A DNA stretch of 64,000 nt, from assembly GCA_963666565.1 (NCBI GenBank), contig OY762911.1, positions 3,424,001 through 3,488,000 on the forward strand. Reading direction: 5' to 3'. The notes beneath the pieces were generated by a model, which was given only the letters and a program-made list of their open reading frames with translations, was not told the DNA's origin and did not search any database. Below, piece after piece: positions 38,515-52,873 of the stretch. The stretch is from Thermoanaerobaculia bacterium. Its GTDB lineage: Bacteria > Acidobacteriota > Thermoanaerobaculia > Multivoradales > Multivoraceae. The first letter of the stretch is position 1. Each line of letters begins with the position of its first letter. The position numbers and the translations under genes were made by a program.

Positions 38515-39282
38515 TCAGCCGGCGCCTTCCCGGACCGTGGCGAGGATGATCGAGATGTTGTCCCGGCCGCCGTCGTCCATGGCGAGATCGAACAGCCCGG
38601 TCGCCGCGGCGGCGCCAGTTTCGGCCGCCGCCAGGACCTCCTCGATCCGGCGAACGTCGAGGTGATCCGTCAGTCCGTCGCTGCAGAGCAGGTACCGCCA
38701 TCCGGCGTTCAGTTCTTCGCGGCCCACGTGAGGGCTCACGTCCACGAAGCTCGACCAGCCGCCCAGGGCCTGCGTGATGCGGCCCGATCGCGGCGCCTCG
38801 GGCGGCACGTCGTCGATGCTCAACTGCCTCGCGAACCCGTCACGGTAGCGGTAGATCCGGCTGTCCCCCACGTTGAACCAGCGGATGCCCCCGGACGCGA
38901 AGAGCATGCCGGCCACCGTGGTCCCCATCGCGCGTCTCCCGGGCGGTTCCGCCGCCGCCTCGTACACCGCCCGGTTCACGTCCCGGATCGCCTTCGCCGT
39001 CCCGGTGCCGAGTTCGTCGTCCTCCTCACCGATGCGCTCCGCCAGCAGGCGGGCGGCGAGCGCGCTCGCCTCCTGGCCCGCGGCGTGGCCTCCCATGCCG
39101 TCCGCCACCAAGCACAGGACCGGCTCACGAAGGGAGCGCTCGACCGACCGGGGCGCCTCCATTTCCTCGGCGCCGGCCCGGAAGTCCCCGACGACGATCG
39201 TGTCCTCGTTCCGCTCGCGGACCTTGCCCCGGTGGGTCCAGGCCGTCGCCTCCAGCGTGAACCGCCCGGCCGCGTCAGCCAA
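38515..39282 (-). CDS. PP2C-family Ser/Thr protein phosphatase
   Basis: RERNED, VADGMGGH, NVGDSRIY, LLCSDGLTD, GGRDNIS. TTG start overlapping the FHA stop assumed (alternative ATG 39303). Confidence 0.93.
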   Translation of the reverse strand: MADAAGRFTLEATAWTHRGKVRERNEDTIVVGDFRAGAEEMEAPRSVERSLREPVLCLVADGMGGHAAGQEASALAARLLAERIGEEDDELGTGTAKAIRDVNRAVYEAAAEPPGRRAMGTTVAGMLFASGGIRWFNVGDSRIYRYRDGFARQLSIDDVPPEAPRSGRITQALGGWSSFVDVSPHVGREELNAGWRYLLCSDGLTDHLDVRRIEEVLAAAETGAAAATGLFDLAMDDGGRDNISIILATVREGAG

Positions 39283-39856
39283 GCCGCACCACCGCGCCGG
39301 CATGGCGGGAGAAGCCGATCTCGTCGTCCTCCGCCAGGCGCCTGGACTCCCCCACGTCGCCGATCGCCGTGCCGTTGAGGTACGTCGGGTTCGTTCGGCT
39401 CAGATGGCGCACCGTCAGGAAACCCTCGCCGTCCAGAAAGAACTCCGCGTGCCGCCGGGACACGTACATGTTGCCGCTCAACTCCCGGGCGTGGCGGCAG
39501 AACTCCGGATCCCGTCCGATCCCCACCGTTTCGCCCGGACCCACCACGACGTCCCCCCATTCGAATGAGAGGGTGGCACGGGGACCCGCCCCGCCCGGCT
39601 CCATCGTCGTCGCCGCCACGCCGGCATCGGCCTGGGCCGCCACGCCGGCGCCGGCCGGCGGCGGCGGCACCGCTGCCGCGGCCGGTTCGCTCCGGTCCTC
39701 CCGCACGGGAGGGCCGCCGTCCTCGGCGCCCGCTGCGGGAGGAGGCGGGCCGGTCGTCTTCGCCGCTCCCGTGAGCGGCGTATGGCATTCGACGCAGAAC
39801 AGCTCGTGCAGGTCGTTGCCGGCGCCGCAGGCGGGACACTGGATCATTCGCGCCAT
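39275..39856 (-). CDS. Zinc-ribbon plus FHA domain protein
   Basis: CPAC...CVEC at the N-terminus, Pro/Ala linker, FHA motifs IGR, VSRRHA, TNPTYLNG. Confidence 0.9.
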   Translation of the reverse strand: MARMIQCPACGAGNDLHELFCVECHTPLTGAAKTTGPPPPAAGAEDGGPPVREDRSEPAAAAVPPPPAGAGVAAQADAGVAATTMEPGGAGPRATLSFEWGDVVVGPGETVGIGRDPEFCRHARELSGNMYVSRRHAEFFLDGEGFLTVRHLSRTNPTYLNGTAIGDVGESRRLAEDDEIGFSRHAGAVVRLG

Positions 39857-40500
39857 GAAGCACCCTTCAGAACGACCCCTCTCGCCGCCAGGTTCGCCTC
39901 GAGCCGCTCCAGGTCGCCGCCCGCCGGGATGCCGACCAGGGTCACGTCGCCTCGTCCCACCTCGACCTGGAGACGATCCCGTCCGGCGGGCCCCTCCCGG
40001 CCGAAGCGCCGGTAAAGCTCCCTGCCCCGCTCGCTCAGCCCGACGAGCTTCTGGTTCGCCGACCCCAGCCAGCGGGACTCGCCGCTCAGGCTGGCCACGA
40101 ACGGTTCGGCGATCAGGCCGTCGAGGCCCGCCAGCACGGCCGGAAAGTCGGCGCGCAGGCGGCGCAGGCCGAAGCCGCTGTAGCAGAGGATGTCGAACCA
40201 GCCCTCCGGACGCTCGCTCCGCCACGACCGAAGACTCTCCACGAAGGCCGCCAGCGCGTCCGGCTGCTCGAAGGGCTCGCCGCCGCTGATCGTCACGCCG
40301 TCGAACCCTCCCGAACCGGCGGCCCGGCACCACTCGACCAGTTCGTCGACCTCCACGGACCGGCCCCCTTCGGGGTCCCATGTGTCCCGGGACGAGCAAC
40401 CCGGGCAGCCGATGGAGCAGCCCTGGAACCAGACGCCGATCCTCCGGCCGGGGCCGAGCGTGGTCACCGGAAACCGGGCGTCGTTCAGCCGCACCCTCAT
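39844..40500 (-). CDS. NrdG-like radical SAM (4Fe-4S single cluster) protein
   Basis: GPGRRIGVWFQGCSIGCPGC (CxxxCxxC), GVTISGGEPFEQ, YSG, GSANQ. Confidence 0.9.
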   Translation of the reverse strand: MRVRLNDARFPVTTLGPGRRIGVWFQGCSIGCPGCSSRDTWDPEGGRSVEVDELVEWCRAAGSGGFDGVTISGGEPFEQPDALAAFVESLRSWRSERPEGWFDILCYSGFGLRRLRADFPAVLAGLDGLIAEPFVASLSGESRWLGSANQKLVGLSERGRELYRRFGREGPAGRDRLQVEVGRGDVTLVGIPAGGDLERLEANLAARGVVLKGASWRE

Positions 40501-52789: not shown

Positions 52790-52792
52790 TAA

Positions 52793-52873
52793 ACTGTGTG
52801 GCACATCGACGGCAAGCACTACGGGTTCCGGGGCGGCGACCCGGTCGAGTTGGAGGCGCCCGTTTCGGAGTAG
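52793..52873 (+). pseudogene. Stop-severed C-terminal tail of kinase 3
   Basis: After TAG TAA the same frame reads TVWHIDGKHYGFRGGDPVELEAPVSE*, homologous to the kinase 1 end VYRVDGQHYRVQDGVGVEIEAPVSE*. Confidence 0.8.

Follow-up and report, generated by a model that had tools for sequence, protein, structure and literature searches.

A 64,000-nucleotide window of the genome of a Thermoanaerobaculia bacterium (contig OY762911.1, positions 3,424,001 to 3,488,000; coordinates without a locus name are those of this window) contains a 14-kb stretch that is a horizontally acquired island. The island carries five minus-strand genes that face three membrane Ser/Thr kinase genes and a second copy of the gene for a coiled-coil protein, Hel. 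Our overall reading, to which we give about an even chance, is that the island holds, in expanded form, a widespread four-component module that is apparently undescribed and consists of Hel, a AAA+ protein, an activase-type radical SAM protein (rSAM) and a sensor kinase, that this copy belongs to the rarer of two subtypes (type II), and that its signalling chain acts on Hel. The window has a G+C content of ~70% and therefore contains many spurious open reading frames (ORFs); genes were chosen by codon-position GC together with homology. The resulting features, with E-values of Pfam matches, are as follows.

38493-52883, unstranded: whole island, inserted relative to same-genus genomes.
38515-39303, minus strand: PP2C-type Ser/Thr phosphatase, 262 amino acids (aa); alternative start TTG 39282; PP2C_2, 1.1e-13.
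39275-39856, minus strand: Zn-ribbon and FHA adaptor, 193 aa; FHA, 3.4e-10, residues 113-182.
39844-40500, minus strand: glycyl-radical-activase-like rSAM, 218 aa; Fer4_12, 3e-22; CSIGCPGC and GGEP motifs.
40497-42488, minus strand: AAA+ protein, 663 aa; AAA_2, 1.1e-48, and ClpB_D2-small, 1.2e-8; N-terminal half family-specific and without Walker A.
42485-43855, minus strand: Hel1, a coiled coil followed by a conserved C-terminal alpha/beta domain, 456 aa from a GTG start; without Pfam match.
43856-44016, unstranded: divergent Hel1/Kin1 intergenic region, with a second copy at 47881-48045.
44017-46575, plus strand: Kin1, Ser/Thr kinase, 852 aa; start 44017 or 44092; Pkinase, 2.9e-29.
46594-47880, minus strand: Hel2, second coiled-coil copy, 428 aa, 68-69% identical to Hel1.
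48046-50391, plus strand: Kin2, paralogous membrane Ser/Thr kinase, 781 aa; alternative start 48121; Pkinase, 9.3e-30.
50453-52789, plus strand: Kin3, paralogous membrane Ser/Thr kinase, 778 aa; Pkinase, 5.1e-30.
52790-52873, plus strand: remnant of a Kin1-like C-terminal tail past the Kin3 stop (46218-46586 versus 52504-52884, 69%).

The first-pass annotation had described five minus-strand genes whose stops and starts overlap (PP2C, Zn-ribbon-FHA, rSAM, AAA+ and Hel1), divergent from three paralogous membrane kinases and a second Hel copy. This arrangement was recovered both from the junctions as read and from the Pfam calls, including the Pkinase matches. ATGA overlaps were read directly at 42488/42485 (Hel1/AAA+) and 40500/40497 (AAA+/rSAM), the FHA/rSAM junction (39856/39844) is a 13-nt overlap, and the FHA stop at 39275 lies inside the PP2C start region (ATG 39303 or TTG 39282). 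The catalytic motifs are intact in the kinases, PP2C, FHA, AAA+ and rSAM proteins. The PP2C translation shows DGMGGH, GDSR and SDGL motifs and scores 141.5 bits with the NCBIfam Stp1/IreP model, below the cut-off of 230; the N-terminus of the FHA protein has a weak Zn_Ribbon_1/DZR match (residues 4-28), where CPAC...CVEC is read. In Kin1, five TxR[D/E] motifs precede the kinase domain, which is followed by a helical middle part and a multi-transmembrane (TM) C-terminus, and residues 598-679 of Kin2 give a weak, sub-threshold SLATT match (E 0.0012, 18.7 bits versus a cut-off of 41). Two gene starts had to be revised. Hel1 had been taken as a 644-aa ORF starting at 44419; because the first 188 codons of this ORF are Arg/Pro-rich and have no counterpart in Hel2, we set the start at the homologous GTG at 43855, which gives the 456-aa protein. 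Kin1 had been started at 43801 and begins instead at 44017 or 44092.

The genes of the cluster recur together in other genomes. A scan that took one genome per species gave at least 485 confirmed relatives of the AAA+ protein, and the locus counts below refer to the best 80 of these 485; full-length AAA+ homologs at 50-60% identity number in the thousands. The 80 loci come from Longimicrobiales, Latescibacterota, Vicinamibacterales, Bryobacterales, Competibacteraceae, Chromatiaceae and a Streptomyces, as well as from many Betaproteobacteria (Undibacterium, Azonexus, Gallionella, Sulfuricella, Ottowia and Accumulibacter). Searching all ORFs of the loci with the window proteins by phmmer identified rSAM in 71/80, the kinase in 63/80, Hel in 62/80, PP2C in 11/80 and FHA in 9/80; with a hidden Markov model (HMM) of the Hel C-terminal domain, Hel was found in 72/80, and six of the eight misses have the AAA+ gene at a contig edge. 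The commonest order is Hel-AAA+-rSAM-(FHA-PP2C)-kinase on one strand, and three loci (L045, L059 and L063) have the same components in shuffled order. Among 12 gene-called loci, a 4-nt stop/start overlap joins AAA+ to rSAM in seven and Hel to AAA+ in five. Rare fusions link rSAM to the kinase (P0124), rSAM to FHA (P0128) and AAA+ to rSAM (P0127, P0130, P0131 and P0133), all of them single-member clusters in which gene-call artefacts are possible. Since the same gene set recurs in 80 loci, the association is far above chance.

These counts clearly bear out the expectation that the cluster genes co-occur elsewhere. They also identify Hel, AAA+, rSAM and the kinase, judged by gene content, as the conserved core, with FHA and PP2C as accessories of one subtype. 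The kinase/FHA/PP2C set to which attention had first been drawn is thus present in the window, but FHA and PP2C are not part of the core (9/80 and 11/80 loci). The initial overall interpretation, in which diversified membrane kinases sense an input, FHA relays it, and AAA+ and rSAM act on the helical protein, was supported insofar as the genes form one co-inherited unit, co-occur and are distinct from the known systems considered below; it is refined here in that FHA and PP2C are accessory.

Individual loci showed additional genes. In the Streptomyces locus (L063, 5801-9695), AAA+ is directly preceded by genes for a CHAT-domain protein of 1075 aa and for a DUF6338 protein, and Hel is placed between the kinase and rSAM. 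A 101-aa ORF with no Pfam match lies between AAA+ and rSAM in L072 (11872-12177) and L069.

Relatives were also present on viral contigs: 2 of 69 viral-contig loci, both from IMG/VR contigs, have a full-length AAA+ relative at 35-43% identity. In L093 (6637-10617), terminase and portal genes are followed by a 447-aa ORF translationally coupled to AAA+ and then by rSAM, and in L092 (7374-9860), AAA+ is next to genes for a T7-like RNA polymerase and Bro-N. The 447-aa ORF occupies the position of Hel and was not detected by the Hel C-domain HMM (hhalign probability 2.8%).

Comparison of the kinase-bearing loci revealed two architectures. At least two TxR[D/E] motifs precede the kinase domain in 12 of the 13 loci with FHA or PP2C (2-10 motifs in those 12, for example as runs of GATVRE) and in 1 of the 50 loci without, whereas at least two CxxC motifs, forming a double Zn ribbon, precede it in 0 of the 13 and 47 of the 50; because the loci are related, we take these counts as a description of the split, not as a statistical test. 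The window kinases have five (Kin1), three (Kin2) and three (Kin3) TxR[D/E] motifs, and in this cluster it is the FHA protein that has the Zn ribbon. By these sequence features, the window cluster is assigned to the rarer type II, with a Zn-ribbon-FHA protein, PP2C and a TxR[D/E] kinase; in the common type I, the kinase itself has two fused N-terminal Zn ribbons. FHA domains prefer phosphothreonine with a defined +3 residue, and the likely FHA ligand would be the phosphorylated TxR[D/E] repeats of the kinase N-terminus. The comparison further suggests that, depending on phosphorylation, FHA may recruit to the kinase the Zn ribbon that type I has covalently. The split would then amount to a natural experiment in which the Zn ribbon is either fused or recruited through FHA and phosphothreonine, with PP2C to reverse the recruitment.

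The C-terminal module of the kinase varies: most loci have a TM hairpin there, and others have PG_binding_1, WD40, FGE-sulfatase, Lcl_C or DnaJ-CXXCXGXG domains. Seven type II loci (L002-L007 and L010) have a small protein with two to three TM segments encoded directly after the kinase, for example at L002:16013-16426, L006:16077-16421 and L005:17945-18421. The idea that multi-TM kinase tails are fusions of this small protein was not supported, as phmmer found nothing in the TM parts of the window kinases.

The expansion of the module in the island is due to duplication. In this genome, duplication of a divergent Hel/kinase pair resulted in two genes for Hel and three for kinases, with most of the differences in the membrane part. 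In DNA comparisons, 42482-45968 aligns with 46591-49919 at 77% identity over 3.5 kb, and a second duplication, 48120-49910 versus 50452-52263, relates Kin2 to Kin3 with 91% identity. The duplicated unit includes the ~160-bp intergenic region, and both intergenic copies, which lie within the 77% duplication, have in common a stretch containing TATACT as well as a conserved 3' block. In alignments, the kinase paralogs share 75-90% identity in their cytoplasmic parts but 34-44%, with numerous indels, in their C-terminal multi-TM parts; for Kin3 versus Kin2, the values are 90% and 34%. This difference justifies calling the kinases a polymorphic array, as the first-pass annotation had done. The Kin1-like tail remnant at 52790-52873 suggests that Kin3 may have been truncated or rearranged after duplication.

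The source genome (G000), a single 4.79-Mb contig that is 97% complete, allowed the insertion to be placed. The island lies between a hydrolase gene (37419-38492) and a DUF5916 gene (~52884-55122), the orthologs of which are 264-567 bp apart in 4/4 informative complete same-genus genomes (G009, G013, G002 and G010); a further genome (G021) was uninformative for this site because the hydrolase was not found there. The DNA is collinear with the same-genus genomes up to the island border. Among 41 relatives, full-length AAA+ is present only in the source genome. The AAA+ N-terminal half was found in 3/300 genomes of the order, in no other member of the genus among the 41 relatives, and in 20/301 genomes of a betaproteobacterial family. 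At the island borders we detected no repeat of more than 13 nt, and the Pfam scan revealed neither an integrase nor a transposase within the island. The hydrolase gene (37419-38492) is inverted in the source genome relative to G009/G013 and its neighbours are collinear, so that the arrival of the island was more than a simple insertion.

This distribution bears on whether the module could be a housekeeping unit for envelope-stress or redox signalling that takes no part in conflict, a reading that we regard as decidedly unlikely. Consistent with such a unit, the flanks of the module are mostly housekeeping genes and one lineage of Undibacterium species keeps it at a single syntenic site; in addition, many hosts are presumably microaerophiles or denitrifiers of oxic-anoxic interfaces, a habitat that would suit a radical protein sensitive to oxygen. 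Against it, the module is very patchy in the genome sets just described and was inserted in this genome, it occupies three distinct genomic contexts in Undibacterium, versions of it occur on phage contigs, and its sensor part has been expanded and diversified locally.

The AAA+ protein resembles the Hsp100 unfoldases ClpB, ClpA and ClpV in its C-terminal half, which corresponds to a D2-type ring and contains Walker A and B motifs, the pore loop GYVG and a D2-small domain. There is a single Walker A (GPTGVGKT, residue 388), along with a Walker B of sequence VLLFDE, and each of 15 family members likewise has one G....GK[ST] motif, always in the C-terminal half. Class-I Hsp100 proteins (ClpB/ClpA) have two Walker A motifs, and the cluster AAA+ thus differs from them in its single nucleotide site, as well as in its N-terminal 330 residues. 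Whether this half might be a degenerate D1 ring was addressed by searching the N-half profile against PDB, which gave no significant sequence match (best E 0.071). It scores 255.8 bits with the ClpB model, versus a cut-off of 1232.

The rSAM protein is closest to the glycyl-radical activases. Its best NCBIfam match is NrdG (69.8 bits versus a cut-off of 126.1; PFLA, 53.5 versus 231.75) and its best PDB match is PflA (3c8f, 1.1e-10). Like PflA and NrdG, it has the N-terminal GPG-R...QGC...C..C...TW motif and GGEP, and the NrdG model TIGR02491 aligns nearly end to end; unlike them, it falls below the curated cut-offs and has ~65 extra C-terminal residues. The CxxxCxxC cluster motif and the GGE SAM motif are invariant in 46 family members. 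We found no Gly_radical domain (PF01228) in six host genomes, including the source genome, and no NRDD domain (PF13597) in the source genome.

Two other explanations of rSAM were considered. An ordinary anaerobic NrdG/PflA activase that lies beside unrelated signalling genes by chance would explain why these are its best family matches, but the lack of Gly_radical and NRDD in the source genome and of Gly_radical in five other hosts, the scores under the curated cut-offs and the linkage to AAA+ in 71/80 loci make this explanation barely credible. Alternatively, rSAM could act on a small molecule, for example a nucleotide converted, as by viperin or QueE, to a signal or chain terminator, with AAA+, Hel and the kinase in regulatory roles. 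Fer4_12 does include QueE, and weak matches to QueE were obtained in NCBIfam (E 4.6e-4 to 1.7e-3) and PDB (5tgs, 3.8e-4). The similarity to activases is much stronger (69.8 bits for NrdG and 53.5 for PflA versus <20 for QueE, and 1.1e-10 for PflA in PDB), and the operon is without a nucleotide-handling gene; we therefore consider a small-molecule substrate quite improbable.

Hel has no Pfam or NCBIfam family, and searching it against the ESM Atlas returned only unnamed 'hypothetical protein' clusters. Its relatives form 1744 representative clusters at E <= 1e-3. From the N- to the C-terminus, the protein has the residues MSGP, a coiled coil that varies in length, a conserved ~130-residue domain and a basic tail. 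Among 150 cluster representatives, the Gly in LGY and the Cys in WC are each present in 150/150, D, E and W positions in 149 each, and the MSGP N-terminus in 97. AlphaFold2 models of Hel were confident (predicted local distance difference test 82.7 for Hel2, and 82.1). In a VIA-wide search, full-length Hel matched helical look-alikes only, and the top structural neighbours of the C-domain were the KA1 domains of AMPK, Chk1, SAD-B and MARK, with Z 4.8-6.8, for example 3t4n_A (Z 6.8, root-mean-square deviation (rmsd) 3.1, 83 residues aligned) and 5wi2_B (Z 6.5, rmsd 2.9, 80 aligned). Both Hel and KA1 domains partner with a Ser/Thr kinase; the two differ in that sequence identity is 5-14% and that the Hel domain is on a separate protein.

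The KA1 comparison enters into an explanation in which the kinase itself would be the effector, as in kinase-based abortive defence, of which Stk2 and PD-T4-6 are examples. The kinase would phosphorylate many cell or phage proteins, KA1-like Hel would be its inhibitor or membrane tether, AAA+ would strip Hel and rSAM would be ancillary. KA1 domains are autoinhibitory in AMPK, Chk1, SAD-B and MARK, and their rank as top neighbours (Z 5.1-6.8), the joint duplication of Hel and the kinase as a divergent pair, and the availability of PP2C as an antidote fit this explanation. The window kinases also match PADLOC defence kinase models (mad6, ~1e-34 to 1e-38; PD-T4-6, ~1e-28), in the generic kinase domain only. 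We nevertheless think it unlikely that the kinase is the effector: the KA1 match is inside the range that the search tool deems uninformative, PP2C is absent in 69/80 loci, and no role is left for rSAM, which is present in 71/80 loci and translationally coupled to AAA+.

Returning to a signalling chain that acts on Hel, the boldest form of this reading is that Hel would be a radical-bearing protein, in which rSAM installs a glycyl radical or a Gly/Cys radical pair at the LGY Gly and WC Cys of the C-domain, AAA+ opens or recycles Hel and the kinase gates the reaction. This form is speculative, and we judge it decidedly doubtful. In a complex prediction of rSAM (with 4Fe-4S and SAM) and Hel residues 262-405, the median score of 0.43, beside 0.35 for one control, counts neither for nor against binding between the two. 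If true, Hel would represent a kinase-triggered protein-radical effector or an oxygen-sensitive switch, in bacteria without a classical glycyl-radical enzyme and in some phages. The pairing of a protein-directed rSAM activase with a Clp-type unfoldase in hosts without a known glycyl-radical enzyme points to unexplored protein-radical chemistry.

Comparison with known systems showed partial likeness in each case. In the type VI secretion system (T6SS), the threonine-phosphorylation pathway consists of PpkA, Fha1 and PppA with ClpV, and the cluster resembles it in that one locus encodes a membrane Ser/Thr kinase, a reader (FHA), an eraser (PP2C) and a AAA+ protein of the Clp family. By analogy, phospho-dependent assembly is likely to be a logic common to the two. 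The cluster differs in that it adds rSAM and Hel, has a AAA+ protein with a unique N-terminal half and a single Walker A, and uses FHA and PP2C optionally. The shared parts would be accounted for if the cluster were an accessory of the T6SS pathway or of the TerY-phosphorylation (TerY-P) triad. For the source genome the T6SS link is refuted, with 0 matches to VipB/TssC (PF05943) and Hcp (PF05638) in a search that was positive in E. coli controls, and the AAA+ protein scores 208.9 bits with the ClpV model TIGR03345 (cut-off 884.95), over its C-terminal half only. No vWA/TerY domain was found among the 11 cluster ORFs scanned (Pfam, E <= 0.01), and FHA and PP2C are both absent from most related loci. 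An accessory role in either pathway is thus extremely improbable, in agreement with the first-pass annotation, which had set the cluster apart from both.

Similarity to defence systems was limited to single domains. No PADLOC system matches the cluster: with PADLOC-DB v2 models, PP2C, FHA, rSAM, Hel1 and Hel2 gave 0 matches, and AAA+ and the kinases gave partial or generic matches only. The AAA+ protein shares a ClpB-like core with Dodola (DolB, 3.5e-18) and the candidate system PDC-M37 (PDC-M37B, 2e-29), but only ~120-160 residues of the ATPase core match and no partner genes of these systems were found. The kinases, predicted to be active Hanks-type enzymes, match the models of the kinase-based systems Stk2, PD-T4-6, MADS (mad6) and BREX (PglW); this similarity is confined to the generic kinase domain, the NCBIfam scores are far below the cut-offs and the operon partners differ. 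A class III/IV lanthipeptide synthetase, which would make a ribosomally synthesized and post-translationally modified peptide, was also considered and rejected, since NF038150 gave 74-82 bits versus a cut-off of 650 over the kinase part only and Pfam detected no LANC or lyase domain. We found no description of the operon in the open full-text literature searched, a search that did not cover supplements; passages in two papers concern other ternary systems (PMC7159879) and other ParA systems (10.64898/2026.10.19.760177), respectively. The first-pass view that this is not a recognized, characterized system is upheld by the literature and PADLOC results together.

We propose the following chain for the type II module. 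The variable C-terminal part of each kinase would perceive a membrane, envelope or ligand cue, upon which the kinase would phosphorylate its own TxR[D/E] repeats. FHA would dock on the phosphorylated repeats and bring its Zn ribbon to the kinase, as fusion does in type I, and PP2C would reset the phospho-state. The assembled complex would then license the AAA+ unfoldase and rSAM to act on Hel, which is proposed as the target because it is the only operon protein without another assignable role and has an invariant Gly and Cys.

Several observations weigh against this proposal. We infer the whole signalling chain from sequence, and the idea about the FHA ligand combines a correlation among related, non-independent loci with the preference of FHA domains for phosphothreonine and a defined +3 residue. 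The scores of rSAM below every curated NCBIfam cut-off make any substrate class assigned to it tentative. For Hel, Foldseek searches of the full-length protein and the C-domain against PDB gave nothing at E <= 0.001, the KA1-like Z-scores of 4.8-6.8 are suggestive but within what the tool deems background, and the phage 447-aa ORF would carry Asn at the invariant Gly, in a weak alignment. The surroundings of the module lend the defence reading no guilt by association: the 102 flanking genes of 12 loci showed no consistent defence context and only generic matches, the flanks being mostly housekeeping (ABC ATPases, IscS, PLD, HerA-like, a sigma-54 activator, one CHAT and one HEPN protein).

As to biological role, the output most likely lies in conflict or abortive defence, or in a stress response. 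Patchy distribution, insertion in this genome, three genomic contexts in Undibacterium, varied and locally expanded sensors, a DarT-DarG pair 4 kb away and copies on viral contigs all favour a conflict role, and defence is our leading guess, plausible but unproven. A defence or stress system of this kind would represent a new mechanistic class; otherwise, the module would be a large uncharacterized signalling family with a testable biochemical hypothesis. The module is present in at least 485 species-level genomes from many phyla, yet Hel is covered by no Pfam or NCBIfam family and the module by no PADLOC model.

Finally, two further features were noted elsewhere in the window. The DarT-DarG toxin-antitoxin pair (DarT, 33057-33734; macro/DarG, 33550-34494) lies on a 2.2-kb segment (33025-35204) of lower GC (0.657), which is absent from the collinear region of G009/G013 and therefore represents another small insertion, at a distance of 4 kb from the island. 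An intergenic element of ~210 bp (~25944-26160), between beta-lactamase-family and acyl-CoA dehydrogenase genes, has 73-82% matches at many dispersed places in G009/G013 and looks like a dispersed repeat.

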